From contig JBKPAI010000051.1 of assembly GCA_046726355.1 (NCBI GenBank), positions 1,106 through 65,105 on the forward strand: a stretch of DNA of 64,000 bases. Direction: 5' to 3'. The notes under the pieces are model-generated. The model had not been told where the DNA came from. It did not search any database and worked only from the letters and a program-made list of their open reading frames with translations. The position numbers and the translations under genes are program-made. Origin of the DNA: Acidobacteriota bacterium (GTDB lineage Bacteria > Acidobacteriota > Vicinamibacteria > Vicinamibacterales > CAVVIG01). Below are positions 1 to 64,000 of the stretch, piece after piece (positions within the stretch are counted from its first letter, which is position 1; each line of letters begins with the position of its first letter).

Positions 1-2723
1 GTCGCGGTCTTGCTCGCTTCGACGTCGGGCTGGTCGAATGGATTGATCCCGAGGATGGCGCCGGCTGTGGCGGTCGCGATCTCCCAGCGGAAGAATTCCG
101 CCCCCAGATCGTAGGGATCGTCCAGCGTGATGCGCACGATGGGGTGACCGGCCCGCGCCAGCGCGTCGACTGATGCGTCCTGTGCCGCATCGGGCGAGGA
201 TAGCAGGCGCAGATACACGAACAGGCGGTCGCGTCCATACCGGTCCGGACCGCCGAGTGTCTCGCGATCGATCGGAATCAGTCCTTTTCCCTCTTTGCCC
301 GTCGATTCGGCGACGAGCTGTTCCAGCCACGCGCCGAGCGGCACGAGTCCCGGCGGCGCCACGATCGTCAACTTGTCCCGGCCGAATCGGGTCGCGGCCA
401 CGCCCAGAATCGTGCCGAGCACGACGCCAGGGTTCTCCTCGACCGGCACGGACGGCATGCAGGCGCAGACCATCTCCTCGGTCCGATCGAGGAACTTCAC
501 GACGTCGACACCCATCACTGCCGCGGGAACCAGGCCGAAGTCCGACAGCACCGAATAACGGCCGCCGATATTCGGCCATCCGAAGAAGACACGGCGGAAT
601 CCATCGCTCTCGGCCGCCTGCTGCATTTTCGAGCCGGGGTCGGTGATGGCGATGAAGCGGCGGCCGGCTTGCTCGGGTCCCACCAGTTGGGACACGCGAT
701 CGAAGAAGTATTGCTTGAAGATGTTCGGTTCGAGCGTCGAGCCCGACTTGCTCGAGACAATGAACAACGTGTTCTTCAGATCGATTTGGTTCTCGAAGGC
801 TTTCACCTGGGCCGGGTCGGTCGAATCGAGCACGTGCACCGCCGGAAAGCCTTCGATTCTTCCGAACGTCGTCTTCAAGACTTCCGGGCCGAGACTGGAT
901 CCTCCCATGCCGAGGATCAGAACGTGAGCGAACCGGGCGCTGCTGGCGGCGTCCCTGATCGCGATGAGACGCTGAACGTGTGCGAGTTGATCGTTGGTGA
1001 TGCCGAGCCAGCCGAGCCACTGCGCTTCGTCTCTGCCGCTCCATAGCGTCGCGTCGCAAGCCCACAGCCTCCTGACGTTGGCCTGCGCGCGCCATTCCGT
1101 CAGCGACTCACCGACCGCGGCGGCCAGGGGCTCGGGCAACGTGTACGACATGCGGTTGCGGGGCGCGGCTCCGCCCCGGAGACGCTGCGCGTCGACGGCT
1201 TTCAGCAGCTTCTCAAAAGCGGTGGAGAACAGCTGCGCGCCCTCTGCCAGCAGCATTTCCGTCACCTCGCTCATGGCGATGCCGGCGTCGTGCAGCGACG
1301 CCATGGTGTCGCGCGCCGACTCGAGGTCTTCGGTCAGACTGGCGCGCGGCCGTCCATGATCGCGAAAGGCAGCGAGCGTCGCAGGAGGGATGGTGTTGAC
1401 GGTGTCGGGTCCGACCAGCTCCTCGACATAGACGACGTCGCGGTAGGCGGGATTTTTCGTACCGGTGCTGGCCCAGAGCAACCGCTGCGTCTGCGCGCCC
1501 CGATCCGCCAGCGCGCGCCACCGCGGGCCGGCGAAGAGCTCCTGGTACCGCTGATACGCGAGCTTGGCATTGGCGACCGCCACCCGGCCGGTCAAATCGT
1601 GCAGCGCACGCTGTTCGCGCGCATTCGTCGTCGCCGCGGCGCGCGCGGACACGAGGGCGTCGATCACGGTGTCGATCCGGCTCACGAAGAAGCTGGCAAC
1701 GCTCGCGATCCGCGCCACGTCGCCGCCGAGGGCGGCACGCTGCTCCAGTCCGGCGAGGTACGCCTCGGCGACCTGCTCGTAGGCGTCGATCGCGAACAGC
1801 AGCGTCGCGTTCACGTTGATGCCTTCGCTGATCAGCTGCCGGACGGCGGCGATGCCCTGCGACGTCGCCGGAACCTTGATCATCAGGTTGTCGCGTCCCA
1901 CCGCGCGCCACAGGCGCCGTGCTTCGTCGATCGTGCCGGCTATGTCGTAGGCGAGGAACGGCGACACTTCCAGGCTGACGTATCCGTCGCGTCTCGACGT
2001 CTCGTCGTACACGCTCCGCAGTTCGTCGGCCGCGTCCTGAATGTCGCGGACGGCGAGCATTTCGTACAGCGTCTTGGCGTCCTCCGCTCCGGTGTGGGCG
2101 GCGAGCAGATCGCGGTAATCGGAGCTCCCGGCGATGGCCTTTTCGAAAATGGCCGGATTGGACGTCACGCCGCGGACGCCGTCCTCGTTGATCAGCCGGC
2201 GCAGCTCGCCGCTGGTGATCAGGCTGCGGCGCACGTAATCGAGCCAGACGGACTGCCCGAATACTCGGAGCGCACGCACCGGGTTCTCGAGCGCGGTCAT
2301 CTTGGCGAGCCGTCGGAGGTGGCGATCATCGCCCGAGAATCGGGCGTTCAGAAACGCCTCCACCAGCTCGCATGCGAGCTCGACGCCGACGACGCGGCCG
2401 CCGAGCACGAGCACGTTCATGTCGTCGTGCTCCACGCCCTGGTGTGCGGAGTACGTGTCATGGCAGAGGCCGGCGCGAATGCCTTGAATCCTGTTCGCCG
2501 CCATCGACGCGCCGACGCCGCTGCCGCACACGATGATGCCGCGCTCGACCCGATGCTCGCGCAGCGCCGCGCCGACCGCTTCCGCATAGTCCGGGTAGTC
2601 GACCGCCCGATCCTTGTCGAACGTGCCGACGTCGACGACCTCGCGCTGCCGTCCGCGGAGGAACGCGCGCACCGCCTCCTTCAGCTCAAAGCCGGCGTGA
2701 TCCGAGCCGATTGCCACGCGCAT
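1..2723 (-). CDS. RpiB-transaldolase-glucose-6-phosphate isomerase triple fusion (3' end runs off the left edge)
   Basis: Absent from the ORF track because it has no stop in the window. Manual translation from ATG 2723 gives RpiB ([35 protein letters not shown]). It continues with no stop into transaldolase ([56 protein letters not shown]) and then Pgi ([41 protein letters not shown]). Confidence 0.9.
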
Positions 2724-4839
2724 GGGTCACCTCGCCCTTGTCGACCTGTTGTCTGGCGGCCAGGACGACGTTGTCGACCGTGAAACCGAACCTCTTCTGC
2801 AGCTCCAGCAGCGGCGCCGAGGCCCCGAACGTCTCCATGCCGAGACTGTGACCGTCAATGCCGACATACCGGGTCCATCCGAGCGTGGACGCCTTTTCGA
2901 CTGAGACGCGCGCGGTGACCGCGGATGGCAGCACCTGCTCGCGGTATTCAGGATGATCGCGACAGTAGCGCTCGAACAGCTCCCACGACGGCATGCTGAC
3001 GACCCGCGCCTTGATGCCCTCGGCGAGGAGGCGCTCGTGCGCCTCGACGCAGAGCGAGACCTCGCTGCCGGTGGCCAGCAGCAACACGTCCGGTCGATCG
3101 CCGGCATCGGTCAGCACGTACGCGCCGCGCGACACGCCCGCCGCCGACGCGTACTTCGTGCGGTCCAGCGTCGGCACCGCCTGCCGCGTCAGGATCAGCG
3201 CGACCGGCGCGTGGCGGAGCTGCATGATCAGGCGCCAGGCTTCGACCGTCTCGTTCGCGTCGGCCGGCCGCAGCGTGATGAGACCGGGGATCGCGCGCAG
3301 CGACGCGAGATGCTCCACCGGCTGGTGCGTCGGGCCATCCTCGCCGACGCCAATCGAATCGTGCGTGAAGACGTGGATGACCGGGATTTCCATCAGGGCG
3401 CTCAGGCGGATCGCCGCGCGCCCGTAGTCGCTGAAAATCAGGAATCCCGATCCGTACGGCCGGACCTTCGACAGCGACAGGCCGTTGAGAACCGCCGCCA
3501 TCGCGTGTTCGCGAATGCCGAAGTGAAGATTGCGCCCGCCGGGACTGTCGGCGCTGAAGTCATCGGCGCCGTCGAACGTCAGGCGCGTCTTGCACGACGG
3601 GCCCAGGTCCGCCGACCCTCCGAGCAGCCATGGTACGTTCCTGCCGATCGCATTCAACGCCTGTCCGGATGCGTCGCGCGTCGCCATCCCCTTGCCGTCC
3701 GCCGGAAACGACGGCAATTCCCGGTCCCAGCCTGGCGGCAACTCGCGCCGCAGCATGCGGAATCCGCGATCCGCGAGATCGGGATAGGCGCGGCGGTACT
3801 CTTCGAAAGTCGCCCACCAGTCGCGATGCAGCGCCGCACCGCGCGCGCAGACGCCCGCCTCGAAATGAGCGCGCACCGCGTCGGGCACGAGGAACTTCGC
3901 GTCTTCCGGCCAGCCGTAATGCCGCTTGGCGAGCCTGATTTCCTCGGCGCCGAGCGGTTCGCCATGCGCCGCGCTGGTGTCCTGCTTGTTCGGCGCGCCG
4001 TAGGCGATGTGGCTGTCGACGATGATGAGGGTGGGCCGATCGGTCGTGTTCTTGAAGGTTCGGAACGCACGCTCGAGCATCGCGAGATCGTTCGCGTCGC
4101 CAACGCGCGTGACGTTCCAGCCGTAGCCGGCGAACCGCGTCGCCACATCGTCGCTGCAGGCCAGCGCCGTGTTTCCCTCGATCGTGATTCGATTGTTGTC
4201 GTAGATCCAGCACAGGTGCGAGAGCTTGAGGTGTCCGCCGAGCGACGCCGCCTCGGCGGTGATCCCTTCCATCATGCAGCCGTCGCCGCACAAGGCGTAG
4301 ACGTCGTAGTCGAAGAGGTCGAATCCCGGACGATTGAAGTGGCTGGCCAGCCAGCGTTCGGCGATGGCCATGCCGACGCTCGTCGCCAGACCCTGCCCGA
4401 GCGGGCCGGTCGTCGTCTCGACGCCCGAGGTCCAGCGGTATTCCGGATGCCCGGGGCACTTGCTGTCGGTCTGGCGAAAACGCTCGATGTCCTGGAGGGT
4501 CACCGCCGGATCGCCGAGCGTTTCGTACTTCGGATTCACCGCCTTCATGCCGGTCAGGTGCAGCATCGAGTAGAGCAGCATCGACGCGTGGCCCACCGAG
4601 AGCACGAACCGATCGCGATTCGGCCAGATCGGGTGATTCGGATCGACGCGCAGGAAGCGTTGCCACAGACAGTAGACGACCGGCGCAAGCGCCATCGGCG
4701 TGCCGGGATGGCCCGAGTTGGCCGCCTGCACGGCGTCCATCGACAACGTTCGGATCGTGTTGACGCACAACTGATCGATGTCGACGCCGGGCGTGTCGAC
4801 GCGGACGGTCGCATGTCGTAGGCTCGATTCGGTCGTCAT
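2686..4839 (-). CDS. tkt: transketolase
   Basis: Motifs [33 protein letters not shown] (ThDP), [24 protein letters not shown]. Start set at ATG 4839 (MTTESS). The stop overlaps the rpiB start by 38 nt. Confidence 0.95.
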
Positions 4840-4900
4840 CGGCTCAGCTCCGCCCCGATGCCGCGGCCGCCGGGCAGACGGCACGGGTGCCGCGCCATCG

Positions 4901-7312
4901 CTAGTAGGGCCACGTCCAGTTCACGAGTTCCGGGCGATCGGTGCCGTGCTCGTGCGCAAACCGCATGTTGTCGAGGATGGCGTTCTTCATCTCCTCTTTG
5001 AGGTGCGCGGCCCGTGTTCGCAGCTTCGGCACCCGCTCGATCACGTCGATGACCAGGTGGAAGCGGGACGTTTCGTTCAGCATCGCCAGTTCGAGCGGGG
5101 TGTTGATGTTTCCCTTTTCCTTGTAGCCGCGGACGTGCAGGTTCTCGTGGCCTTTGAACCGGTACGCGAGCCTGTGGATCAGCCACGGATATCCGTGAAA
5201 GTTGAAGACGACCGGTTTGTCCGACGTGAACACCCCGTCGAATTCACGCTCGGTCGAGCCGTGCGGATGTTCGGACGCCGGCTGCAGCTTGAACAGATCG
5301 ACGACGTTGACGAAGCGCAGCTTCAAGTCGGGGACGCGATCGCGCAGGATCGCGGCGGCTGCCAGCGCTTCCATCGTGGCCACGTCGCCGCACGACGCGA
5401 GCACGACGTCAGGCTCTTCGCCGGCATCGGTGCTCGCGCGCGCCCAGATGCCGAAGCCCTTGGCGCAATGCGTGATGGCTTCGTCGATCGTCACGAACTG
5501 GAGGTGCTTCTGTTTGTCGGCCACGATCACGTTGATGCAGTCGCTGCTGCGGAAGCAGTGATCCGCGACGGCCAGCAGCGTGTTGGCGTCGGGCGGCAGG
5601 TAGATGCGCACCACCGAAGCCCCCTTGTTGGTCACGAGATCGATGAAGCCGGGATCCTGATGCGAGAAGCCGTTGTGGTCCTGGCGCCAGACGGTGGAAG
5701 ACAGCAGGATGGTCTCGGACGCGACCGAGGCACGCCAGTGCACGTGGTTCTTGCTGATGTCCAGCCACTTCGCGTGCTGGTTGAACATCGAGTCGATCAC
5801 GTGGGCGAACGCTTCGTAGGTATGAAACAGGCCGTGGCGGCCGGTGAGCAGATATCCTTCGAGCCACCCGAGGAGCGTGTGCTCCGACAGGATCTCCATC
5901 ACGCGACCGTCAGGGGCGAGCTCACCGCCGTCTGCGTCCTCCGGCAGCAGATCGGCCATCCAGGTCTTCTTGCTCACCTCGTACACGGCCTGTAACCGAT
6001 TCGAGGCGGTTTCGTCAGGACCGAACACGCGGAACGTCGTCGGATTGTTCCGCATCACGTCGCGGAGATACTCGCCCAGCGGCCTGGTGTTCTCGTATGT
6101 CGCAGCGCCGCGCGTCGGCACGTCGACCGCATGCCGGCGAAAGTCCGGAAGAGTCAGATCCTTCCTGAGCAGTCCGCCGTTGGCGTGCGGGTTGGCGCTC
6201 ATCCGGCGCGTCCCCGTTGGCGCGAGCGCCTTGAGATGGGGGACGAGACGGCCGTTCCCGTCGAACAACTCTTCGGGCTTGTAGCTGCGCAACCAGTCGC
6301 TCAGCAGCTGGAGGTTGTCGGGATTGTCCCGCACGTCGGAAAACGGCACCTGGTGCGACCGCCAGGACCCTTCGACCTTGTGTCCCTTGATCTCCTTCGG
6401 ACCGGTCCAGCCCTTCGGCGTCCGCAGCACGATCATCGGCCACCTGGGACGGAAGGGCCGGTTGCTGTCGCGCGCCCTCCTTTGTTGCGTGCGAATCTCT
6501 CCGATCGTGTCTTCCAGCGTCGACGCCATCCTCTGGTGCATCTCGGCGGGATCGCTCCCCTCGACGAAATAGGGCTTGTAGCCGTAGCCGACGAACAGCG
6601 CGTCCAGTTCCTCGTGACTGATGCGCGAAAGGATCGTCGGGTTGGCGATCTTGTAGCCGTTGAGATTCAGAATCGGCAGCACGGCGCCGTCGCGGACCGG
6701 GTTGATGAACTTGTTGGAGTGCCACGACGCCGCGAGCGGACCCGTCTCCGCTTCGCCGTCGCCGACGACGCACGCCACGATGAGATTCGGGTTGTCGAAC
6801 GCCATGCCGTACGCGTGCGAGAGGCTGTAGCCCAGCTCGCCACCTTCGTGGATGGAGCCCGGTGTTTCGGGCGTGACATGGCTGCCGATATGACCCGGGA
6901 AGGAGAACTGCTTGAAGAACTTCCGCATTCCCTCGGCGTCCTGGCTCTTGTCCGGATAGATCTCGGAATACGTGCCTTCCAGGTAGGCCGGCCCGAGGAC
7001 GCCGGGCGCGCCGTGGCCCGGCCCGGCGACGAAGATCATGTCGAGATCGTGCTTGACGATCAGGCGGTTCAGATGGACCCACACGAACGACAGCGCCGGG
7101 CTCGCGCCCCAGTGGCCGAGAAGGCGGTGCTTCACGTGCTCGGTGATCAACGGCTCTCTCAGCAGCGGGTTGTCCTTCAGATAGATCATCCCGACCGACA
7201 GGTAATTGCACGCGCGCCAGTAGGCGTGCATCAGCTCCAGCTCCTTGGCCGACAACGCCTTGTCGGCATCCATCACCGCCACCCCTTTATGGCTCGCTCG
7301 CGTTTTTTCCAC
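4901..7312 (-). CDS. xfp: xylulose-5-P/fructose-6-P phosphoketolase
   Basis: Motifs [68 protein letters not shown]. Start is GTG 7312 or ATG 7273. Confidence 0.95.
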
Positions 7313-7328
7313 GGCACTTCTCCCGTTC

Positions 7329-8354
7329 TCAAACGACTAAAGACACCGTCTCCATCGACGGCTTGTACATGCCGAGCGCCGCCGCGCTCGCGCACCTGGC
7401 GCGGTGGTAGAACGCCTGCTGACCGGCCATCAGGTTTTCGGGCCGGCCTCGCCACGCATTGAGAGCTTCCGCCTGCAGCGCGCGTCCGTACGAAAACGTG
7501 AGCGGCCACGGCTTCGGCGCGTCGAACCGGTTGATGGCGTTCAGGTGCAGCGTGGCGAGGAGATGATCCTGGCCCCCCGACAGGAACACAATGCCCGGGA
7601 CCGACGCGGGCACGAAGCGCTGGAGACACCGAACCGTCGCCGCCGCGACGTTGGCGACGGAGGCCTGTGCGGCGCACTGTTGTCCGGAGATCACCATGTT
7701 CGGTTTGAGCAGGATGTCGTCGAGCGCCACGGTCTGGGTCCACAACGCCTCGAACACCGCATGCAGGACGTTTCCGGTCACCTCCTCGCAGCGCGCGATC
7801 GTGTGCGGGCCGTCCATCAGGACCTCGGGTTCGACGATCGGCACCAGACCCTGCTCCTGACACAGAGCGGCATATCGTGCCAGCGCGTGCGCGTTGGCCT
7901 GCACGCAGGCTGCGCTGGGCAGCGGTCCACTGACGACGATGACCGCGCGCCACTTCGCGAACCGGGCGCCGATCTCGCGGAACCTCGTCAGACGGGCGCG
8001 AAGCCCGTCGAGACCCTCGGTGATGGATTCCTTCGTCGAGCCCGCGAACGGCTGGGTGCCGGCGTCGACCTTGATTCCCGGGATGATGTTCTGCTGCGCG
8101 AGCACGTCGACGAGCCGTGCGCCCGTCGAGTTGCACTGGTGGATCGTCTCCTCGTGCAGAATGACGCCGCTGATGTATTCCGCGATGCCTGGTGTGGTAA
8201 AGAACATCTCGCGGTACTCGCGGCGGCTGTCCGGCGTCGATTGGACCGCAACCGCCGCGAGCCGCTTGGTCACGGTGAAGACCGTCTCGTCCGCGGCGAG
8301 AATGCCCTTGCCCGAGTCGACGAGGGCGCGTGCGGTCGTGTGTAGATCCGTCAT
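7329..8354 (-). CDS. fba: class I fructose-bisphosphate aldolase (Schiff-base, eukaryote-like family)
   Basis: Motifs [31 protein letters not shown] (Schiff-base Lys), [15 protein letters not shown]. True start is ATG 8354 (MTDLH); the ORF-track N-terminal extension overlaps the upstream gene. Confidence 0.93.
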
Positions 8355-8959
8355 GGTTCCTCCGGGTGTTCCTGGGGCGCGAGCGCGGCGTTCCACCGTT
8401 TCACCGCCGGGATTCCGCGGTAGTAGCCGAGCACGCTCAGCGTTGCCGTACCGAGCTGGAAGTGGCAGCCGGCCAGGGTCGGCAGCCCCAGCCATCGGGC
8501 GACGACAACTCTGAAAATGTGGCCGTGCGCGAACAGCGCCACCGAGCCGCCCGCCGATCGGACCTTCGCGATCACTCGATCGGCGCGGGCGCCCACCTGT
8601 TCGGGACTTTCTCCACCCGGACAGCCATCCCTGAAGATCAACCAGTCGGGCGCCTTCACCTTGATGTCCTTCGGCGTCAGGCCTTCGTACTCGCCGTAGT
8701 TCCACTCCACGAGATCGCGATCGATCTCGGCGCGGTCGCCGAGGCCGGCCAGCTCGCACGTACGCCGCGCACGGGTGAGCGGGCTCGTCAGCACCCGCGC
8801 GAAGCATTCCCCGGCCAGGGCCGGTGCGAGCTGCGTGGCCATCCTCTCTCCGTTCTCGGTGAGCGCGAGGTCTGTCACACCGGTGTGCTGCCCGCTCAGG
8901 CTCCACGCCGTCTCGCCGTGGCGGAGCAGATAGACGCGCTGATCCGTCCAGGTGTTCAT
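8351..8959 (-). CDS. histidine phosphatase superfamily protein (phosphoglycerate mutase-like sugar phosphatase)
   Basis: RHGET catalytic motif, SPLTRARRT, EWNYGEYEG, GGES, FAHGH. Start is ATG 8959, with 4-nt overlaps to both neighbours. Confidence 0.88.
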   Translation of the reverse strand: MNTWTDQRVYLLRHGETAWSLSGQHTGVTDLALTENGERMATQLAPALAGECFARVLTSPLTRARRTCELAGLGDRAEIDRDLVEWNYGEYEGLTPKDIKVKAPDWLIFRDGCPGGESPEQVGARADRVIAKVRSAGGSVALFAHGHIFRVVVARWLGLPTLAGCHFQLGTATLSVLGYYRGIPAVKRWNAALAPQEHPEEP

Positions 8960-10605: not shown

Positions 10606-10609
10606 GGAA

Positions 10610-15273: not shown

Positions 15274-15324
15274 ACGCTCTCCGCGCGTTCGTCGCGTTTC
15301 ACGAGGTCCGATGCCGCCGTCGTT

Positions 15325-15933: not shown

Positions 15934-15949
15934 TGCAAACGGCACGCCT
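15934..15949 (-). promoter_or_regulatory. putative sigma54 -24/-12 promoter of the DUF4136-glgP...tal-pgi block
   Basis: Minus strand reads AGGCGTGCCGTTTGCA (GG-N10-GC, TTGCA at -12), 50 nt upstream of ATG 15885. Confidence 0.65.
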
Positions 15950-51241: not shown

Positions 51242-51242
51242 G

Positions 51243-52664: not shown

Positions 52665-52678
52665 CCGAAGGTCGGACG

Positions 52679-53461: not shown

Positions 53462-53486
53462 ACCGTTCGCAGCGGAGACAGATCGC

Positions 53487-53975
53487 ATGGCAACCGTAAC
53501 CGTTCTGAAATTCTCGACCCCCGAGGGCGCGCAGAATGCGCTGGCCCTGGTGCAACGCCTGAAGAAGAAACATCTGATCAAGTTGCTCGATGCCGCGATC
53601 GTGTCGTGGCCGACGGGCGAAAGCGGTCCCACGACTCGTCAGCTGGTGAACCTGGTCAGGACCGGCGCCCTGACCGGGATGTTCTGGGGCATGCTCTTCG
53701 GGCTGATTTTCGTGACGCCGCTGTTTGGCATGGTGCTCGGCTCGGCCGTCGGTGCACTCGGCGGGACGTTTCACGACTATGGTATCGACGACGACTTCAT
53801 CAGGCAGGTCCGCGGCGCGGTCACCGCCGGCACGTCGGCGCTGTTCCTGATGACGAGCGACGCGGTGATGGATCGCGTCGTCGAGGGAATGAAGGGCGTG
53901 AAGTTCGAAGTCATCGCCACCAACTTGTCGGCCGACCAGGAGCGAAAATTGCGTGAAGCGTTCGCCGCGGCGTAA
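53487..53975 (+). CDS. DUF1269-family membrane protein
   Basis: Motif LIKLLDAAIV, a glycine-zipper TM pair (GALTGMFWGMLFGL...GSAVGALGG), DYGIDDDFI, GTSALF, TNLS. Confidence 0.82.
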   Translation: MATVTVLKFSTPEGAQNALALVQRLKKKHLIKLLDAAIVSWPTGESGPTTRQLVNLVRTGALTGMFWGMLFGLIFVTPLFGMVLGSAVGALGGTFHDYGIDDDFIRQVRGAVTAGTSALFLMTSDAVMDRVVEGMKGVKFEVIATNLSADQERKLREAFAAA

Positions 53976-55707: not shown

Positions 55708-56434
55708 TCCACGCGGCGAACTGCGGCGCGAGAATCCGTCCCAGCTGAAGGCCCGATTTCACGCCGGTCCGGTTGTCGAGCAGCCAATCCGTTTTGGTCT
55801 CGGAGTCGGCGAGCACCCACCATCGCGTCTGCCACCGGAAAATGACCGTCGGCGTGATCAGGAGGAAGTTGAGGTCCGGCCGCGCCGAGTCGCCGCCAAT
55901 CGACGAGAGGTTCTGAAGCTTCACGAACAACAGCCCGCGTCCGGGGAAGAACCACACCGGGGCGGCCGCAGGTGCCAGCGTCCACTTTCCGGTTCCCAGC
56001 AGCTCGTCGCTGGCCGTCGGCGCCTGCAGTCCACTGCCGACGACGAACGCAAAGCGCCGGCTGAAATACGGTGCGACGAGCAGTTGCGCGTACGCGTCGC
56101 CGAGCCCGGTCTGCCGCGGCGAGCTGCCGGCCTGCGTATATCTCACCGGCAGCTCGAAGCGGAGAATCACTCCACGCCGGCCGGGCAGCCAGCGCCGCTG
56201 CACGAACGTCGCCTGGTCATAGCGAAAAATCACCGCGCCCTGCGACACCGAGGGAGCCGGCGCGTAAAGCTCCGGTCGAATGCTGAACAGCACGGGGCGC
56301 GTCGGATTGCTGTCGTTTTCGACCGCCGCGTTGGGTTGATCGCGCGTACTCTCAGGCGTCTGAGACCACCCGCGGGTCGGCGCGCACAGAAGGACGAGCG
56401 CCGCGATCGCCCGACCGGCGCGCATGCGTGCCAT
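55631..56434 (-). CDS. putative outer-membrane beta-barrel (transporter-like hypothetical)
   Basis: Signal peptide, TGLGD, PTASDELLGTGKW, alternating beta-strands, C-terminal NLKFGLVWFR. Confidence 0.62.
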   Translation of the reverse strand: MARMRAGRAIAALVLLCAPTRGWSQTPESTRDQPNAAVENDSNPTRPVLFSIRPELYAPAPSVSQGAVIFRYDQATFVQRRWLPGRRGVILRFELPVRYTQAGSSPRQTGLGDAYAQLLVAPYFSRRFAFVVGSGLQAPTASDELLGTGKWTLAPAAAPVWFFPGRGLLFVKLQNLSSIGGDSARPDLNFLLITPTVIFRWQTRWWVLADSETKTDWLLDNRTGVKSGLQLGRILAPQFAAWIKPELWWGPNQSGRWNLKFGLVWFR

Positions 56435-56464
56435 CCCCGCGGCCGTGAGGCGTTCGGGTCGACG

Positions 56465-57232
56465 CTACGGTTGAACCGTCACCGCGGCGTTCAGCGAGAA
56501 CTGCAGCCGCGTTTCAGCCGGGACCTTCAGATGTTCCGTGCCCTGGCTGGAAACGATGGCTCCGGTCGCGCCGCCGGCGACCGCGCCGATCGCTGCGCCG
56601 GTACCGCCGCCAGCGATCCCACCGACGATGGCGCCAAGCCCGGCGCCTCCGGCAACCTTTCGCGTCGTCTTCTTCCCTTCGCCCGAGCCCTTCGACTCGA
56701 CGGGCGTCGTGACGATCTCGTACTTGCGGCCGCCGAAGGCAATCGAGTTCGCCTTCAGCGTGATTTTGTCGGCGCCTTTCATCTTCCCGGCCTGCTCGAC
56801 CTTCGCCGCCTGCAGCACGACGGCCGCGCCGCGCGGGACGATGACCTTGCCGCCCATCATCACCGGATCGTCGAGGAGCGACTTGAACGTCATCCCTGCT
56901 TGAGCGGCATCGACTTCAATCGTCTGCGTCAGGCGCACGCTCAGCAGCGTGCCGGCGGGCAGGGTCACGGGCGCGGGCGCTTTCGACGGATCGGGCGCCG
57001 GCGCCGGCTGCGCCTTGCGTGGCGAGAACTCCACTGCGCTCACGCCATCCACGGGGAACTCGGCGATCGATCCGTTGTCCAGCAGCAGGCGGACGATCTT
57101 GACGTCCGCGCTCATGAACGCTCCGGTGACGACTTTGCCCGATCGCAGCGTCACCTTGTCAGCCGAGAGGGTCGCGCCGGCGACGACCATCGTTGCCATC
57201 AGGGTCGAGAAGAACAGCGAGTGCTTTCGCAT
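56465..57232 (-). CDS. exported hypothetical protein with glycine zipper
   Basis: Signal peptide, a small N-terminal domain (DKVTLRSG), a Pro/Ala linker, LPAGTLLSVRL beta domain, GAGLGAIVGGIAGGGTGAAIGA. Confidence 0.72.
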   Translation of the reverse strand: MRKHSLFFSTLMATMVVAGATLSADKVTLRSGKVVTGAFMSADVKIVRLLLDNGSIAEFPVDGVSAVEFSPRKAQPAPAPDPSKAPAPVTLPAGTLLSVRLTQTIEVDAAQAGMTFKSLLDDPVMMGGKVIVPRGAAVVLQAAKVEQAGKMKGADKITLKANSIAFGGRKYEIVTTPVESKGSGEGKKTTRKVAGGAGLGAIVGGIAGGGTGAAIGAVAGGATGAIVSSQGTEHLKVPAETRLQFSLNAAVTVQP

Positions 57233-57255
57233 GGGTCACACCTTCGTGTCGCGTG

Positions 57256-57798
57256 TCATTTCGCGAGCGGCAGCGCCGACGCAATCTGGAGGTCGAGCAG
57301 CAGCAGGATCTGGTTCTCCACCTGGATGAACCGCGCCGCCGTCTTCGGCGAGATGACCGACTTGAGTCGATCGTAGAAGCGTGCTTTCAGCGCGTTCCTC
57401 CGCGATTCGAGGTCGAGCGCGCCGCGCGCGAGCTTGTCGGCGACCGGATCGGTCAGCTGCTCGTAGTTGACCGCGTACTCCTTGATCAGCGCTATCCGGT
57501 CGTCGTTGATCTTCGCGAGCTCGTTCTCATACTCGCGGTAGACGGGCCAGAATTTCTCGTCTTCGGCCTCGGTGAACTGCATCACCTCGGTGATGATGGC
57601 GACTTTCTGGCTGCGGAGGTCGGAGCGAAGCAGCTCCACGTAGGCACGCAGGTTCGTTTCGCGGGTTTCGTCCGAGGCTGTGGTCGGCGTCGCCTGCGCG
57701 GGGCCGGGCTTCGTCGCCTGCACGCCGGCAGCGGCGTGCGCGCACGCCAGCACGGCCAGCGTGACGACGCCGATTTGCAAGTGGTTCACACGCGTCAT
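57256..57798 (-). CDS. exported alpha-helical hypothetical protein (Spy/CpxP-like character)
   Basis: Signal peptide, MQFTEAEDEKFWPVYREYE, ARFIQVE, charged helical composition. Confidence 0.68.
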   Translation of the reverse strand: MTRVNHLQIGVVTLAVLACAHAAAGVQATKPGPAQATPTTASDETRETNLRAYVELLRSDLRSQKVAIITEVMQFTEAEDEKFWPVYREYENELAKINDDRIALIKEYAVNYEQLTDPVADKLARGALDLESRRNALKARFYDRLKSVISPKTAARFIQVENQILLLLDLQIASALPLAK

Positions 57799-57826
57799 GA
57801 CGTGACTCCCTTTCGGTTATCGATCC

Positions 57827-60088
57827 CTACCGGCGTCGGCCGCCGCCTCGCATGGAGCGCCCGGCTCCGCTCGGGCGGTAGCTCGAGGCAGCTCCTGATG
57901 ACTGCGCGCGGCTCGCGTCGCGCGTGCGCTGTGCGCCCTCCGCCCGCGCCGCCGAATCTCGATTGAGCTCCCCCGTCGCCGGCTGCTGGACTGAATTCCA
58001 GCCGCCGTTGTCGTACTTTTGCCAGCTCCCGTCCTGCTTCCGGTACACGTTCCCGTCGCGGCCGGCATACACGTCGCCCGTAGCGGTCCGTGCGACGCCG
58101 GACGTGCCCTGCGGTCCGGTGCGCGTGACGGCGCCTCGGCCGCCGCTGCCCTGCGTGACGCGCGTCGTCGTACCCGTAAGGTTGCTGGTCACGCGGGACG
58201 TGGTCGCCCACCGATCGCCGCGCTGGACGCCACTCTGGCCCCAACTGCCGTACACATTCGAGCCCTGTCTTGTCGCCGCGTACGTTCCCGTGCGCGGGTT
58301 GTAGGCCTGCGCGGCGCCGCGCGCCCCGTACGGCCCGTACGCCGCAGCGCCGCGCGCATACGTGCCCGTCCGCGGGTTGTAGCGCGCGCCGATGCCGGCG
58401 CCGCCGTACGGGCCGTATGCGAACGCGCCGCGGCTGTAGGCGCCGGTCCACGGGTTGTACGCGGCGCGATACCCGTAGGTCGGGTAGTACGGGAAATAGG
58501 CCGGGTAGAACCCGCCGTAATACACGTACGGCGGGTAGTACCAGCCCGTGCCCCAGACCGCGCACCCCCACGCGATCATCATGCCGGTGTAGGCCGCCGT
58601 CGCCGCGAACACGACGTCATCGTCGTGATCTTCCACAACGGTGACGTACGTCACGTTGTGAGCTGGCGAGCTGACCGGAATCTCGTAAATCTCCTTGGGT
58701 ACCGATCCGGTGACTTCCCACGGGCCGCCGGGGCCTCGCGCCATGAACCACACGCCCTGGAAGCACATGTAGTACAGGTCGCCGACTTTGATGATGTCCT
58801 TGTCGGTGTTCACCGCGCGCGAAACGGTCGTCTGTTCGATCGGCTGGAACTGAGGATCGCCCTGATACTGGACGTCGGGCGCGTTCACCTGCTTCTTGGT
58901 GACCCGCGCGGTCTGGGGAATCTGCGCCAGCAGCACCGCTTCAACGGCTTCGTCCGTTCCGGGAACCGATGCGAGCACGCGCGATCGCTCGTGCGAACGC
59001 GGAATCTTCTTGAAATCGTCGGGCAGCGACGGCGTGGCGAACGTCCACGGACCGGTGAAATCGGGTGCCGAGAACCATCGTCCCGAGACGAGGTAGTACA
59101 CCGGGCCGTTCTTGCCGAGCCTGAACACGTCGCTCTCGGTGTTGCTCACCCAGAGCAGGCGCGTGCCGCTCACGACCAGGTAATTCGGAGCGCCGGTCAG
59201 CAGGATCAGTTCCGCGGGTTTCATGCTGACGAACACTTTGGGGACGGTGGCCGGCGATTTGGGTCGGCCGGGCAACGCCGCCTTGACCTCCTTCCAGTTG
59301 TCGTCGGCCGGAAGCGTCGCGAAACTGTCGGGCAGCTTGGCGGCCGGCATCCACGGCCCTTCAATCCTCGTTGCCGTCAGCCAACTGTCGCCGTCCCTGA
59401 GGAAGAGTTTCTTCGTCGGTTCGTGTTCGAACAGATCCCAGTTCGTGTTGACGGCGAACCTGAGATCGTTTTCCTTGATCGGACTCCACACCGGGTCGCC
59501 GTCCAGGTTGACGAGGACCGACGCGGCCGTGGCGTAAAAGATGACTGGCGGGTCGGCCTTTACTCCTTCGACGTTCTTCGGAATGATGTTCGCCTTGTCG
59601 AGCCGGGCCAGCACGCGGTCGAGCCCGATGATTCCCTCGTCGGGCACGAGCCGCTCGATTCGGGCGACGACGTCGCGAAGCTGGTCCTTCGGCAAGTCGG
59701 CGAAGTGAGTCTCGGTCAGCGCGAGGCGCGTGAAGTTCACGAGCCGTTCGTCGACCGCCACCGAAGTGTCCGCCTCGATCTTCACGGTTCCGAGAGCGGG
59801 TTTGGCGGCGCCCTTCGCCGTGTACGCCACCGCGGCGTAGGCGACCATGTGGCGCTGCCCGTCCCAGCTGGCCACCTGCGGCTGAAAGACGCGAATCGCA
59901 CCGCCGCTCGGCGTCGCGTAGTCGCGGGGCCATCCACCGTCGCCCTCCCGGATTGCCGCCGCCGCTTTGGCTGAAGACGGCGGCAATCCGGCTTGCGCGC
60001 TCACCGCCGGCGCCAGCGTCGGGAGGAACGCCGCACCGGCGGCCGCGAAGGCCGCTACCGCGCGCGAAACGCTTCGCTTGACTCTCAC
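57827..60088 (-). CDS. large exported repeat protein of unknown function
   Basis: Signal peptide after GTG 60088 (the ORF track starts at 60148), three ~105-aa NT..D...W...GPW repeats, a Tyr/Pro-rich segment, three 26-aa YNPxTG repeats and a Gly/Arg-rich tail. Confidence 0.75.
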   Translation of the reverse strand: MRVKRSVSRAVAAFAAAGAAFLPTLAPAVSAQAGLPPSSAKAAAAIREGDGGWPRDYATPSGGAIRVFQPQVASWDGQRHMVAYAAVAYTAKGAAKPALGTVKIEADTSVAVDERLVNFTRLALTETHFADLPKDQLRDVVARIERLVPDEGIIGLDRVLARLDKANIIPKNVEGVKADPPVIFYATAASVLVNLDGDPVWSPIKENDLRFAVNTNWDLFEHEPTKKLFLRDGDSWLTATRIEGPWMPAAKLPDSFATLPADDNWKEVKAALPGRPKSPATVPKVFVSMKPAELILLTGAPNYLVVSGTRLLWVSNTESDVFRLGKNGPVYYLVSGRWFSAPDFTGPWTFATPSLPDDFKKIPRSHERSRVLASVPGTDEAVEAVLLAQIPQTARVTKKQVNAPDVQYQGDPQFQPIEQTTVSRAVNTDKDIIKVGDLYYMCFQGVWFMARGPGGPWEVTGSVPKEIYEIPVSSPAHNVTYVTVVEDHDDDVVFAATAAYTGMMIAWGCAVWGTGWYYPPYVYYGGFYPAYFPYYPTYGYRAAYNPWTGAYSRGAFAYGPYGGAGIGARYNPRTGTYARGAAAYGPYGARGAAQAYNPRTGTYAATRQGSNVYGSWGQSGVQRGDRWATTSRVTSNLTGTTTRVTQGSGGRGAVTRTGPQGTSGVARTATGDVYAGRDGNVYRKQDGSWQKYDNGGWNSVQQPATGELNRDSAARAEGAQRTRDASRAQSSGAASSYRPSGAGRSMRGGGRRR

Positions 60089-60122
60089 CTTGGGCCTCCT
60101 GTGCAACGCAGGCCGTCGGCGA

Positions 60123-60464
60123 TCATTGCAGGGAGGCTCGAACTTCATCCATAAAGTCGAGTCCGCGCGTTTCGTGATCGAGCGCGAATTCGATGCGCGG
60201 CGGCTGAACCGCGCCTTCGATCAGCGAGACCAGCTGCGAGAACGTATCGGATCGCAGCCGGCGCCGCAGGTCCTCCTCGGTCTGCCATTCCTCGACATAG
60301 CGGACCGCACCGCGCTTTCCGATGTCGGTCAACACCGAACAGCCGATGCATCCGCGCGTGGTCCGCGTGTCGGCGGCGAGCGAGTGCAGCGCCAGGGTGA
60401 TTGGACGCGTTTGGCCGAGCGGCACGAACCACTCGATGGTCATCCGCACACACGTCGAAAGCAT
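60123..60464 (-). CDS. small ABM-like (dimeric alpha/beta barrel) protein
   Basis: TRTTRGCIGCSV...RYVEEWQTEEDL pattern. Start is ATG 60464 (alternative 60509). Confidence 0.62.
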   Translation of the reverse strand: MLSTCVRMTIEWFVPLGQTRPITLALHSLAADTRTTRGCIGCSVLTDIGKRGAVRYVEEWQTEEDLRRRLRSDTFSQLVSLIEGAVQPPRIEFALDHETRGLDFMDEVRASLQ

Positions 60465-60531
60465 TGTGACACCCAACTTTGTCCGGGCTCCCCATCTGGA
60501 ACGCGACATGCTCGAACGATGCGGGTGGACG

Positions 60532-60547
60532 AGCAGGCTGCATGCCA
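60532..60547 (-). promoter_or_regulatory. putative sigma54 -24/-12 promoter of the ABM/exported-protein block
   Basis: Minus strand reads TGGCATGCAGCCTGCT (GG-N10-GC). Confidence 0.68.
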
Positions 60548-60663
60548 TGGATCGTCGGCGTTGCGGAAACGGGCAACAGCCGTTGTTACGAAGCTCTGAC
60601 GCCAATCGCCGCGAACGTTCGCGGCAGATTGGGACGCCGCGAACTCCGTCTGGCAGGAGGCGC

Positions 60664-60677
60664 TCCGAAATCTCGGA
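60664..60677. promoter_or_regulatory. palindrome TCCGA-N4-TCGGA, putative activator binding site
   Basis: TCCGAAATCTCGGA lies about 125 bp upstream of the 60.5-kb promoter. A related perfect palindrome, GCCGCGAACGTTCGCGGC, is at 60608-60625. Confidence 0.62.
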
Positions 60678-60688
60678 TCGTCGCGGGC

Positions 60689-61699
60689 ATGGTTCTGGCC
60701 GTGTGCGCCTGGCTGCTGTTCGGGCGCGCGACCACGGCCGCCGATAAGGTCGACGTCATTCAGTTGAAGAACGGCGACCGTTTGACGTGCGAGATCAAGA
60801 AGCTCGATCGCAGCGCGCTGATGATCAGCACCGATCCGCTCGGGAAGGCGACCGTGCACTGGGGCGAGGTGGTCGGCGTGATGAGCCCGAGGATGTTCGA
60901 TATCCAGCTGGCCTCTGGCCAGCACTACTACGGGTCGCTGACCCTCTCGGCGCCGGGGCAGGTCGGCGTCGCGCTGAGTGCCGGAGCGCCCACGATCTTG
61001 GCGCTGTCCGACATCGTCCGCCTTGCGCCTATCGGTCAGAGGGTCTGGACCCGGATAGATGGGTCACTCGATGCGGGATTCAGCTTCGCACAGGCGAACC
61101 TCGAGACTCACTACACGCTGAACGGCTCTGCGACGTACCGCAGCCCGCGGTATCAGTTCGGCGCGTCACTGGCCTCCCAGCTGACGAGCAACGAGGACGC
61201 GGACCGCCTTTCTCGAAACAGCCTGGGCCTGAACGGCAACCGATCGTTCGGCAACCGCTGGTACACCATCGGGTGGGGACAGCTGCAGCAAAACGAGGAA
61301 TTGGCGCTCGACCTCCGCGTCGTCGGGGGCGGTGGGGTCGGCCGCGGCCTCGCCCACACGAGCCGTCGGCTCTGGTCGCTGTACGCCGGCCTGGCGTACA
61401 CACACGAGCGATTCTCCGGAGAGTCGCCCGATCAGTCGGCCGAAGCGGCGATCGGTGGGCAAATGGATTTCTTCACGCCGGGGAAGGAGGACTTTCGGAT
61501 CAGCAACAGCGTCGTATCGTACTTCAATGTCACCGGTCGTCAACGGATCCGCGTCGAGCTGCAGAGCGCGTGGCGACACGAGTTTCTCAAGGATTTCTAC
61601 TGGAGCCTCAATGGGTTCGAGAGCTTCGACGGCGATCCGCCGGCGGACCAGAAGCAAAACGATTCCGGCATCAGTTTCACGCTCGGCTGGAAATTCTGA
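60689..61699 (+). CDS. DUF481-like outer-membrane beta-barrel
   Basis: N-terminal DVIQLKNGDRLTCEI domain, GSLDAGFSF, LDLR..GGGVG, C-terminal TLGWKF. Start is uncertain (ATG 60689 or TTG 60629). Confidence 0.72.
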   Translation: MVLAVCAWLLFGRATTAADKVDVIQLKNGDRLTCEIKKLDRSALMISTDPLGKATVHWGEVVGVMSPRMFDIQLASGQHYYGSLTLSAPGQVGVALSAGAPTILALSDIVRLAPIGQRVWTRIDGSLDAGFSFAQANLETHYTLNGSATYRSPRYQFGASLASQLTSNEDADRLSRNSLGLNGNRSFGNRWYTIGWGQLQQNEELALDLRVVGGGGVGRGLAHTSRRLWSLYAGLAYTHERFSGESPDQSAEAAIGGQMDFFTPGKEDFRISNSVVSYFNVTGRQRIRVELQSAWRHEFLKDFYWSLNGFESFDGDPPADQKQNDSGISFTLGWKF

Positions 61700-61796
61700 T
61701 CAGCGGCCGCCGGCTTCGGCGCTTCGCGGGGCAAGCTGGGCCGGGCGTCGCCGCGGACCAACTCTCCGCCCATCAGGGGCTCGAAAGGACGGCTGC

Positions 61797-63434
61797 GTGG
61801 AGGAGTCCTTTCTTCGGACATTGGCGCGACGGTCTTCGGCTCTCGCCGCGGCGGTCCTGGTGCTCGTGCCGTTACTGGGTATCTGGAACGTGTTGGGAAC
61901 GGGCGACCGCATCGGCACCCGCGAGACACTTCTGCTGATCGTGTTTGGCGTCGGCGCGCTTGCCGCGGTGCTGTTCGTCGGCGGCCGTGTCGTCAACCGC
62001 GCGTGGTCGAGCGCGGAATCGGCGCGTCGGCTCGCATCGCTCGTGGAGTCGTGCCACGATTCGGTGATGTCCTTCGATTCCGACGGGCGGATCACGAACT
62101 GGAACCCGAGCGCGCGCCGAGTGTTCGGATTCACGGCAGCGGAAGCGATCGGCACGCCGATCAGCCGGCTGGTTCCAACTGAAGTGCGGGAGGAACAGGC
62201 TCAGGTCATCGCAAGGCTCAACGCCGGCGAGGTCATCGATCACTACGAGACGGTTCGCCTCACGAAGGAGGCGAGGCGCGTCAATGTTTCAGTGACGCTG
62301 TCGCCGATAAGGGATATCGCCGGCCGAATCATCGGCGCATCGGAAGTCGCGCACGAACGATCGCCGGCGGAGCAGGCGCTTCGCGAGAGCGAGGAACGCT
62401 TCCGACTCGTCGCCGCCAGCGCTCCGGTGATGATCTGGGTGTCAGATGTGGATGGGCTGTACACCTACTTCAACCGTGCATGGCTGGAATTCACCGGTCG
62501 ACCGATCGAGAGGGAGCTGGGGAACGGGTGGGCGGACGGCGTTCATCCAGACGACTTGAAACAGTGTCTGGACACCTACACCGAGGCATTCGTCGCCCGC
62601 AAACCGTTCCGGATCGAGTACCGGCTTCGGCGCCACGACGGCGAATACCGGTGGATTCTGAACATCGGCGTACCGACATGTGCACACGGAGCGTTTACGG
62701 GTTACATCGGCTCTGCCACCGACGTCACGGATCACAAGCGCGCCCGAATCCTGCTGGCCGGTCTGAGTCGACGGTTGATGGACGCGCACGAGAAGGAGTC
62801 CGCGCGGATCGCCAGAGAGCTGCACGACGACATCGCGCAGCGCATCGCGGTGCTGGCGATCGAGATGAGAAGCCTGCGCGATGCCGTTCCCGCTGCGATG
62901 GCCGAGGCCCGCGCGCTCCGCAGGATCGCCGACGAGCTGGCTGACCAGGCGGACGATCTTGCACGGGACATCCAGTCGATGTCACATCACCTGCATTCGT
63001 CCCAACTGGACTATCTGGGCATCGCTGCGGCGGCCGCCGGCCTGTGCCGGGAGCTCTCGAGACAGCACAACGTGGAGATCACGTGCCGTTGCGACGGCAT
63101 TCCGAAAGACCTGCCGAAGGACGTTGCGCTCGGATTGTACCGAGTGCTGCAGGAAGCCATCTCCAACGCCCTGAAGCACGCCCGGGTCACCGACATCGCC
63201 GTCGTGCTGCAGGGCCGCCCTGACGATATCGAGCTTGCGGTCACCGACGCCGGGATCGGCTTCGACCCCGACGCGGTGATGCGAGGCAGCGGACTGGGGC
63301 TGACCAGCATGCGCGAGAGGCTTGCGCTCGTGAACGGCGAGATGTCGATCGAGTCGCGGCCAGGCGGCGGGACGACGATCCGCGCTCGCGTTCGGCTGAA
63401 CCGGAGGGCGCCCGCAGGCGCGTCGACTGGTTGA
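61797..63434 (+). CDS. membrane-bound PAS-PAS sensor histidine kinase (HisKA_3/NarX type)
   Basis: Two TM segments, two PAS domains (WNPSARRVFG; FNRAWLEFTG...VHPDD), H-box RIARELHDDIAQ, QEAISNALKHA, DAGIGF, GLGLTSMRER. Start is GTG 61797. Confidence 0.9.
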   Translation: MEESFLRTLARRSSALAAAVLVLVPLLGIWNVLGTGDRIGTRETLLLIVFGVGALAAVLFVGGRVVNRAWSSAESARRLASLVESCHDSVMSFDSDGRITNWNPSARRVFGFTAAEAIGTPISRLVPTEVREEQAQVIARLNAGEVIDHYETVRLTKEARRVNVSVTLSPIRDIAGRIIGASEVAHERSPAEQALRESEERFRLVAASAPVMIWVSDVDGLYTYFNRAWLEFTGRPIERELGNGWADGVHPDDLKQCLDTYTEAFVARKPFRIEYRLRRHDGEYRWILNIGVPTCAHGAFTGYIGSATDVTDHKRARILLAGLSRRLMDAHEKESARIARELHDDIAQRIAVLAIEMRSLRDAVPAAMAEARALRRIADELADQADDLARDIQSMSHHLHSSQLDYLGIAAAAAGLCRELSRQHNVEITCRCDGIPKDLPKDVALGLYRVLQEAISNALKHARVTDIAVVLQGRPDDIELAVTDAGIGFDPDAVMRGSGLGLTSMRERLALVNGEMSIESRPGGGTTIRARVRLNRRAPAGASTG

Positions 63435-63490
63435 AACAGGTCTGCCCCCAAGAACTGAGAACCATCCGCGGCGGAGACGTGAATGGTCCG

Positions 63491-64000
63491 CTAGCCCGCT
63501 TTCTTGCGCGCGACTCCGAGCCTGGCCATCCGGCTCTCGAGCGTCGTCGGTTTGAGGCCGAGGCGTTCGGCGGCGCCGCCCGGGCCGCGGACGCGACCAC
63601 CAGTGCTCTCGAGCACCGCGCGGATATGGTCTGCTTCGAGTTCCGCCAGCGTCCGCGCCAGCGGCGGCAGCGGCATGCCGGCCGGCGGCCGCGGAGCCGG
63701 CACGACCAGGTGGTGGCTGGTTGTGATGATGGCGGCGCGCTCGATGACGTTGCGCAGTTCCCGCACGTTGCCGGGCCACGGATACCGCTGCAGCTCGCGC
63801 ATGCTTTCAGCGGAAATCGACTCGATCGGCTTGCCGAACAGCCGCGAGAACTCGTCGATGAAGGTCCACACCAGTCCCGGAATGTCCTCGGCGCGATCGC
63901 GCAGCGGTGGCACGACGATGGGAAACACGTTCAGGCGGTAGAACAAATCCTGACGGAACGTCTTGTCGCGAACTTCGTCCTCGAGGTTGCGATTGGTGGC
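63491..64000 (-). CDS. sigma54-dependent activator (bEBP), FhlA-like, C-terminal part (5' end beyond the right edge)
   Basis: Motifs ATNRNL, FRQDLFYRLNVFPI..PPLRDR, WPGNVRELRNVIERA, and HTH GRVRGPGGAAERLGLKPTTLESRMARLG. Confidence 0.92.
   Translation of the reverse strand, partial: ATNRNLEDEVRDKTFRQDLFYRLNVFPIVVPPLRDRAEDIPGLVWTFIDEFSRLFGKPIESISAESMRELQRYPWPGNVRELRNVIERAAIITTSHHLVVPAPRPPAGMPLPPLARTLAELEADHIRAVLESTGGRVRGPGGAAERLGLKPTTLESRMARLGVARKKAG

Follow-up and report, generated by a model that had tools for sequence, protein, structure and literature searches.

Sigma-54 promoters carry GG and GC doublets 10 nt apart, in a context resembling TGGCAC-N5-TTGCW. In regulons of the NtrC/NifA type, promoters of this GG/GC form are accompanied by tandem dyad enhancers approximately 100 bp upstream and by a bacterial enhancer-binding protein (bEBP) that has an AAA+ domain with a GAFTGA-type loop and a C-terminal Fis-type helix-turn-helix (HTH). 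The same arrangement is found in an island of approximately 75 kb in the genome of a member of the Vicinamibacterales (Acidobacteriota). Most of the island is covered by the window analysed here, 64,000 nt of contig JBKPAI010000051.1 (C51:1106-65105; the contig is 77 kb long and the genome, G000, comprises 8.05 Mb in 231 contigs). It differs from NtrC/NifA-type regulons in its -12 region, which is (C/G)TGCT and not TTGCA, in its host phylum, and in its genes, which concern energy, pH and the envelope rather than nitrogen. The enhancer, CTCCGA-N4-TCGGAG, matches none known to us. Judged from sequence, the island is probably one sigma-54 regulon, in which an activator encoded in the island would act at tandem dyads and switch all of the transcription units together.

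The PspF/psp system of enterobacteria is a second relative, since there sigma-54 serves the response to stress on the membrane and the proton-motive force; the short homologues of the island activator in other families, which match only its AAA+-HTH half, resemble PspF. The island regulon is about ten times larger than psp and includes a whole ATPase.

Low-oxygen survival loci under FNR-type control include arcDABC of Pseudomonas aeruginosa, which is under ANR, and the lxa locus of Burkholderia cenocepacia. Like the island, these are co-regulated sets for the survival of aerobes without respiration, and the arginine deiminase (ADI) pathway is among them. The island differs in gene content and in having sigma-54 rather than FNR-type control, and we know of no accessory ATPase reported in the arcDABC or lxa loci. 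A metabolic parallel is provided by the bifid shunt and synthetic non-oxidative glycolysis, in which the phosphoketolase route leads to acetyl-phosphate. The first operon of the island encodes phosphoketolase, Tal, Tkt, Rpi, FBA and a candidate sugar-bisphosphatase, which could give acetyl-phosphate in a redox-neutral manner. In contrast to those pathways, this is one operon, fed by GlgP, GlgX and PGM, and Rpe and Tpi are not encoded in it.

AdiA/AdiC, SpeF/PotE and the glutaminase YbaS of Escherichia coli belong to the same enzyme and antiporter families as proteins of the island (PMC3641589, in excerpt). The E. coli systems are scattered and under sigma-70/sigma-S regulators, and sigma-54 is described in excerpts of two papers as acting on acid resistance there only indirectly (PMC3459932, PMC4287178). 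The original prediction for this DNA stated that no regulon of this composition had been described, which agrees with the literature searched: its article texts, as distinct from supplements that might hold regulon tables, contain no such regulon and nothing joining Vicinamibacteria with sigma-54. In the searchable part of a comparative study of sigma-54 regulons (PMC12316311), the terms Acidobacteria, ATP synthase and arginine deiminase are not mentioned. The mechanism is the ordinary one of a bEBP acting with sigma-54; none of the enhancer sequence, the host phylum and the gene set turned up in the literature searched.

Palindromes and promoters at the operon heads

The original prediction had described six operons (op1 to op6, Table 1), each headed by a GG-N10-GC element. 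All six elements are present at the coordinates and on the strands that were given for them, but the bare motif is uninformative since it is too frequent in DNA of 66% G+C. A stronger indication of common control is a rare palindrome that the prediction had not seen, TCCGA-N4-TCGGA, which is shared by all of the operon heads. Four copies occur in the window (at 16024, 39704, 46752 and 60664), where 0.21 are expected, and none of 100 shuffled sequences reached four. The whole 8.05-Mb genome holds 14, five of them on C51. The strong dyad extends to CTCCGA-N4-TCGGAG, and beside most strong dyads there is a weaker copy 18-20 bp away. For all eight strong promoters the centre of the palindrome lies 59.5-135.5 nt upstream of the first base of the promoter element. 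Tandem dyads approximately 100 bp upstream and common to divergent promoters are, by their layout, the anatomy of bEBP enhancers.

The fuller promoter motif TGGCA-N7-TGC is found five times in the window against 1.42 expected, a count reached by two of 100 shuffles, and 220 times on both strands of the genome. The five in the window are all in intergenic operon heads and have the same orientation as the genes that follow them. When a palindrome was required to be followed by an outward-facing TGGCA-N7-TGC at 40-200 bp, seven pairs were obtained genome-wide against 0.06 expected. These use six of the 14 palindromes, every one of the six on C51 or C213. The promoters of the regulon have the form (T/C)GGCAY-N6-(C/G)TGCT. 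The element of op1 (15949, minus strand) has a good -12 region and a poor -24 flank. It is only a probable promoter, since it departs from the form at -26 and -22 (AGGCG) and falls short of a 5-of-6 match.

The count of six operons proved too low. A fifth palindrome on C51, at window-equivalent 67328, heads a unit to the right of the window, and a pair made up of a one-mismatch palindrome and a CGGCAC promoter (L001:5731/5811) heads another. These two units encode an unknown protein, a DUF4136 protein, a CusF-like protein, two large unknown proteins and a TLC-like transporter. A further palindrome, on C213, heads a gene for an outer-membrane protein and one for a fusion of a dicarboxylate symporter with a binding protein. 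With these two units and that on C213 added to the six in the window, the set comprises at least nine promoters and approximately 60 genes. The TLC-like (ATP/ADP translocase family)/MFS transporter, L001:10072-11523, is the final gene of the unit that starts from the promoter at L001:5811. The fusion protein on C213 (L002:7618-9897) joins an SDF dicarboxylate/amino-acid symporter to a family-3 solute-binding domain, and its pair is the only one outside C51.

In both op3 (ATG 39575) and op4 (ATG 46626), the distance from the -12 C of the promoter to the start codon is exactly 14 nt, and the first gene of each encodes a clear signal peptide. Transcripts of the two operons would have no leader, or one of about 2 nt. 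Distances of 14-16 nt to the ATG cluster among the paired promoters of this genome and related loci (7 of 54). In a scan of 25000-64000, no consensus sigma-70 promoter was found at any operon head. This carries little weight, as the sigma-70 promoters of acidobacteria may not follow the consensus that was applied. Terminator-like sites in the same region were not above chance. The gene for a DUF481 protein begins 13 bp past the palindrome of op6 (60497-60690). The element TGGAACGCGACATGCT lies 167 bp upstream of this gene and faces it, and the palindrome would then lie downstream of that promoter.

Recurrence in other Vicinamibacterales

The original prediction had named synteny and promoter conservation in related genomes as a check, and the pairing of palindrome and promoter does recur across the order, in 80 loci, in a collection of 201 genomes and in six further islands. 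In G003, a member of the same genus in which approximately 400 coding bases of a 1-kb query aligned with 73% DNA identity, the island is compact and rearranged. Palindrome and promoter there head the DUF3011 operon, the operon of unk773 (a gene for a secreted 773-residue protein) and the divergent RND/atp pair, and are also found beside the activator gene. In G021 a pair stands in front of atp.

The 80 loci were taken around homologues of unk773 and amount to 1.56 Mb, with 95 palindromes (at most one mismatch) and 265 promoter-like elements. Fifty pairs are in the right orientation and two in the wrong one, against 2.6 expected. Island families lie downstream of 47 paired promoters, with unk773 the commonest (27), followed by CusF-like proteins (13), glutaminase (8), DUF3011 (6), DcaP (5) and others. 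A composite pattern of palindrome and promoter gave 79 matches in 41 of the 201 genomes, G000 included, as compared to 15 for a reversed-pattern control, by our own count of the rows listed; there are often several matches within tens of kb. One extra base between -24 and -12 abolished the enrichment (32 matches against 29 in the control).

Six islands from two other families are reshuffled with respect to this one, and the paired promoters number 4-6 in each, two dyads 18-20 bp apart accompanying most of them. They hold an accessory atp operon, PPK2, the glutaminase operon, porins, unk773, glycine-zipper and DUF4136 proteins, MscS, RND and GH63, and in some cases GlgP/GlgX; the activator, an AraC-like protein and a kinase/NarL/CheY trio are encoded in them as well. 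In all five of the six fetched islands whose stretch includes the atp operon, a pair lies directly upstream of atpB. The genomes with a pair in this position are G003, G021, G124, G077, G166, G185 and G197, and in G077 a pair also precedes GlgP-GlgX. The core conserved across families consists of the ATPase, PPK2, glutaminase and many envelope proteins. Among the 18-22 bEBP matches in each genome, the best homologue of the activator is inside the palindrome cluster in four of five genomes, and in the fifth it is on the same contig.

The activator and the case for a single switch

The sigma-54 activator gene that the original prediction placed at the right edge is real. The window contains the part for its C-terminus, and the whole gene reaches window-equivalent 65578. 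The protein has a PAS domain, a probable GAF domain, in a region that aligns with the GAF part of NorR, NifA and FhlA, an AAA+ domain (Sigma54_activat, PF00158, 3.5e-69) with AAA_lid_14, and HTH_8 at residues 643-686. GETGVGKE and LFLDEIGD are its Walker A and B motifs, and its GAYTGA loop is the F-to-Y variant of GAFTGA. A single RpoN is encoded in the genome (one Sigma54_DBD match, 222.8 bits, on C146), together with approximately 33 strong bEBPs.

One sigma-54-dependent switch for all of the operons, as originally predicted, is supported because every head shares the palindrome at enhancer distance, the pairing is order-wide, and the closest homologue of the activator is on the contig of the cluster in all five other genomes tested. 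We infer that the activator, with its PAS, probable GAF, AAA+ and HTH_8 domains, binds the tandem dyads, that the promoters depend on RpoN, and that the units are induced together. The bEBP would oligomerise, loop to the closed complex of RpoN polymerase and open it by ATP hydrolysis, so that a single signal would activate the whole set of at least nine promoters, within the window and outside it.

Several observations weigh against this interpretation. The related genomes are nearly all metagenome-assembled and are not independent samples. With relaxed criteria, 12 right-oriented and 11 wrong-oriented pairs are found genome-wide, so that such criteria do not discriminate and are useful only with the exact palindrome or with clustering. 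In G017 the divergent atp/RND promoters have no palindrome and a different bEBP gene adjoins them. The 27 paired promoters in front of unk773 were counted with relaxed criteria, two loci giving two each and most loci none; strict criteria left only 6 of 78 loci with a paired promoter in the 1.5 kb upstream of unk773. Since many unk773 loci lack a pair, membership of single genes in the regulon varies. The promoter of op1 is weak, and at orthologues of GlgP no pair was found within 1.5 kb upstream in 26 of 27 loci. That scan gave one dubious pair inside a gene and one pair past the far end of the gene, which it faces on the opposite strand, and conserved control of op1 through GlgP orthologues was therefore not supported by the pair search. 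In the fetched stretches of the six other islands there was no sign of the phosphoketolase, ADI and decarboxylase modules. These may be additions of this lineage, so that the energy theme depends in part on what the lineage has added. Public sequencing runs searched for the stretch gave no RNA run and one DNA run, with a word share of 0.06. Finally, genes for a GerE-type/NarL-type regulator, a CheY-like protein, an AraC-like HTH protein and a HisKA_3 kinase lie beside that of the bEBP and recur in the islands of G166, G050, G197 and G077; in G050 and G166 the AraC-like gene adjoins the activator gene.

These neighbours suggest a different binding partner for the palindrome, either a NarL-type response regulator with the PAS/HisKA_3 kinase as its partner or the AraC-like protein, the bEBP then acting from other sites or without specific DNA binding. 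A 16-bp palindrome would in general suit a dimeric GerE-type protein. We nevertheless consider this arrangement unlikely: a location approximately 100-125 bp upstream, dyads repeated in tandem at intervals of 18-20 bp and an outward orientation of 50 to 2 are standard for bEBP enhancers, the bEBP retains its HTH_8 domain, and by eye, with no motif discovery run, no other common motif is evident at enhancer distance. It is very improbable that the motifs recur by chance or as a repeat without regulatory role, with each operon under separate control, as the frequency of bare GG-N10-GC in this DNA and the even split of relaxed pairs might suggest, given the seven exact-palindrome pairs against 0.06 expected, the pairing kept across families despite rearrangement, and the loss of enrichment with a one-base shift in spacing.

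Gene content and possible trigger

The gene map was built from a codon-position G+C plot and from Pfam and NCBIfam family scans (Table 1). The gene content originally claimed, including PPK2, was confirmed by the family scans. G+C is even along the window (0.63-0.69), and horizontal transfer of the island is not claimed.

Table 1. Promoters, palindromic sites, operons and selected genes in the 64,000-nt window
Feature	Position	Strand	Sequence	Content or remark	Basis
op1 -24/-12 element	15934-15949	-	AGGCGTGCCGTTTGCA	81.5 nt from palindrome centre; probable but weak	
op2 -24/-12 promoter	16166-16181	+	TGGCATGCGGTCTGCC	palindrome and promoter orthologous in G003	
op3 -24/-12 promoter	39588-39603	-	TGGCAGCGGGGCTGCA		
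op4 -24/-12 promoter	46639-46654	-	TGGCACGCGACGTGCT		
op5 -24/-12 promoter	46838-46853	+	TGGCACGCCGGCTGCT		
op6 -24/-12 promoter	60532-60547	-	TGGCATGCAGCCTGCT	orthologous pairs in G003 and further loci	
Upstream activator sequence shared by op1 and op2	16024-16057		TCCGACATTTCGGA	palindrome and a second, weaker dyad ~19 bp on	
Upstream activator sequence of op3	39704-39717		TCCGACAGTTCGGA	palindrome, 5 bp past the atpC stop codon	
Upstream activator sequence shared by op4 and op5	46752-46785		TCCGACAGTTCGGA	palindrome and a second dyad	
Upstream activator sequence of op6	60640-60677		TCCGAAATCTCGGA	palindrome at 60664-60677 and a weaker dyad on the promoter side	
op1	3-15885	-		DUF4136 lipoprotein, GlgP, GlgX, PGM, His_Phos_1 phosphatase, class I FBA, phosphoketolase, Tkt, RpiB-Tal-PGI fusion	Pfam, codon-position G+C plot
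RpiB-Tal-PGI triple fusion	3-2723	-		one reading frame, >907 aa	Pfam
His_Phos_1 phosphatase	8351-8971	-		between PGM and FBA	codon-position G+C plot, Pfam
op2	16195-25486	+		DUF3011 protein, Amidohydro_2, DcaP-like porin, glutaminase, MscS, GH63/MGH1-like hydrolase; start approximate	Pfam, frame plot
op3	25874-39575	-		AlgE-like porin, SpeF-like ornithine decarboxylase, PotE, SBP_bac_3, AdiA-like decarboxylase, ArcA, ArcB, ArcC, AdiC-like antiporter, 202-aa protein without known family	Pfam, NCBIfam
op4	39722-46626	-		secreted 187-aa protein of no known family, then F1Fo a, c, b, short delta, alpha, gamma, beta, epsilon	Pfam
op5	46892-55707	+		RND pump (MFP, RND, OMF), PPK2 (52649-53461), DUF1269, MscS	Pfam
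op6	55631-60464	-		ABM-like small protein, unk773, 180-aa unknown, glycine-zipper lipoprotein, 267-aa unknown	Pfam, translation
DUF481 outer-membrane protein and PAS/HisKA_3 histidine kinase	60690-63434	+		candidate members of the regulon	Pfam
Activator (bEBP), C-terminal part	63491-64000	-		whole gene reaches window-equivalent 65578	

All eight subunits of an F-type ATP synthase were matched by Pfam in op4, in the order a-c-b-delta-alpha-gamma-beta-epsilon. This F1Fo is an extra copy; the housekeeping genes are on C42 and C231, and their products share 66% (beta), 58% (alpha) and 39% (gamma) identity with the corresponding subunits of the island. The delta subunit (43975-44367, minus strand) has only 130 residues and matches only positions 87-171 of the 172-position OSCP profile; in tblastn comparisons with G003, G017 and G021 it is matched along its full 130 residues. 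N-ATPases have no delta subunit, possess atpQ/atpR and have the order beta-epsilon-Q-R-a-c-b-alpha-gamma. The gene order of op4 and its delta gene rule out that identity.

Op1 starts at ATG 15885, with a ribosome-binding site and a signal peptide, and continues past the left edge of the window. It holds Xfp (phosphoketolase), Tal, Tkt, RpiB, class I FBA and the His_Phos_1 phosphatase, which is possibly a fructose- or sedoheptulose-bisphosphate (FBP/SBP) phosphatase; Rpe and Tpi are not in the island. The phosphatase gene is masked by a longer spurious open reading frame and was missed by lists of open reading frames. By tblastn, no second copies of GlgP, GlgX, phosphoketolase, ADI or glutaminase were detectable in the genome. 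Further copies of PGI, RpiB and Tkt-type genes occur elsewhere, as does pta-ackA, which lacks the palindrome.

In op3, matches to ADI, OTCace and AA_kinase identify ArcA, ArcB and ArcC of the ADI pathway, and the antiporter is AdiC/ArcD-like, below the equivalog cut-offs. Of the two decarboxylase/antiporter pairs originally proposed, the ornithine pair is upheld, the decarboxylase subfamily scoring 914 bits against an NCBIfam cut-off of 794 and PotE 663 against 409. In the arginine pair, AdiA is the best match of the decarboxylase but scores 997 against 1167, and AdiC scores 280 against 574, both below the cut-offs, so that these proteins can be called only AdiA-like and AdiC-like.

The commonest gene behind the paired promoters, unk773 (57827-60148, minus strand), encodes a secreted protein of 773 residues with an Arg-rich signal and a C-terminal repeat region rich in Gly, Tyr and Pro, and has 229 relatives in the genome collection. 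It had no match in Pfam or NCBIfam, and an Atlas search gave only hypothetical clusters. An AlphaFold model built with 30 sequences had a mean pLDDT of 59, and a Foldseek comparison with the Protein Data Bank gave nothing at E≤0.001. Since it has no family or structural match, no function is claimed for it. At the other end of op6, the frame for the 267-aa protein overlaps the convergent MscS frame of op5 by approximately 76 bp (55631-55707), and one of the two ends is perhaps miscalled.

The products fit a common theme, in which ATP, membrane potential and pH would be kept up without respiration. Glycogen would be converted to hexose phosphate by GlgP, GlgX and PGM, and hexose phosphate to acetyl-phosphate, without redox change, by phosphoketolase, Tal, Tkt, RpiB, PGI, FBA and the candidate bisphosphatase. 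ArcC of the ADI pathway and PPK2 would add ATP or NTP without respiration, and the accessory F1Fo would spend ATP to export protons. The two decarboxylase/antiporter pairs and glutaminase would use up protons or release ammonia, or build membrane potential, and porins, lipoproteins, MscS channels and the RND pump would remodel the envelope.

The original label of acid/energy stress is plausible from this gene content, but the assignment is still inferential, and low oxygen is at least as likely a trigger as acid. Low oxygen or respiratory arrest comes somewhat short of an even chance in our estimate. The regulon would then keep an aerobic soil bacterium energised in anoxic spells by redox-neutral ATP formation and an ATP-driven proton pump. 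Every ATP source of the island (the phosphoketolase route, ArcC and PPK2) is independent of an electron acceptor. When the PAS domain of the activator was compared with the Protein Data Bank, seven of the eight matches at E≤0.001 were FixL haem domains (E 1.5e-6 to 1.3e-4), and a His and an Arg align with the FixL haem-ligand His and Arg220. On the other hand, the aligned His is confined to a subset of the homologues and is missing from the nearest orthologues, the segment being deleted in the nearest of all, that of G003, and the His absent in G124. The closest homologues in other families (G050, G166, G185 and G197) are short open frames of 366-430 residues that match only from about residue 310-390 to the end, the AAA+-HTH half. 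The conserved core of ATPase, PPK2, glutaminase and envelope proteins is, moreover, not specifically fermentative.

Acid stress is a less probable trigger, one that we regard as doubtful, and the regulon would then be an acid-resistance programme. It would account for the presence together of five classical devices, the AdiA-like and AdiC-like pair, SpeF/PotE, glutaminase, the ADI pathway and the F1Fo ATPase, and two of these, glutaminase and the ATPase, are in the conserved core. On the same side stands the preference of subdivision-6 acidobacteria for neutral soils. Glutaminase has been described as an acid-resistance system (PMC3641589, in excerpt). Against acid, no feature of the regulators points to pH sensing, redox-neutral ATP sources would be superfluous if respiration were available, and the decarboxylases and ADI are among the modules not seen in the fetched stretches of the other islands. 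Other signals, such as hypo-osmotic or envelope stress, are about as doubtful as acid; the two MscS channels and the GH63 hydrolase hint at an osmotic downshift.

The most far-reaching possibility, which we put forward tentatively, is that the activator is an oxygen- or redox-sensing sigma-54 master switch of a life without respiration in the abundant, mostly uncultured Vicinamibacterales. It would combine a near-complete non-oxidative glycolysis from glycogen, ATP from arginine and polyphosphate, a membrane potential driven by decarboxylation, a dedicated accessory F1Fo, its delta subunit truncated, that pumps protons at the expense of ATP, and a conserved set of secreted envelope proteins of no known family, with some promoters perhaps giving leaderless transcripts.

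Few soil bacteria are commoner than the Vicinamibacterales (subdivision 6), whose regulation is hardly known. The regulon described here is concrete in four respects, its enhancer motif, the form of its promoters, its activator and its approximately 60 target genes, and is kept across several families. A complete accessory F1Fo under sigma-54 control would be unusual. The regulon would also tie unk773, the secreted protein encoded upstream of atpB, and the DUF3011, DUF4136 and DUF481 proteins to one physiological response. Should oxygen loss or acidification prove to be the trigger, the regulon would go some way towards accounting for the survival of these aerobes when soil becomes briefly wet, anoxic or acid.

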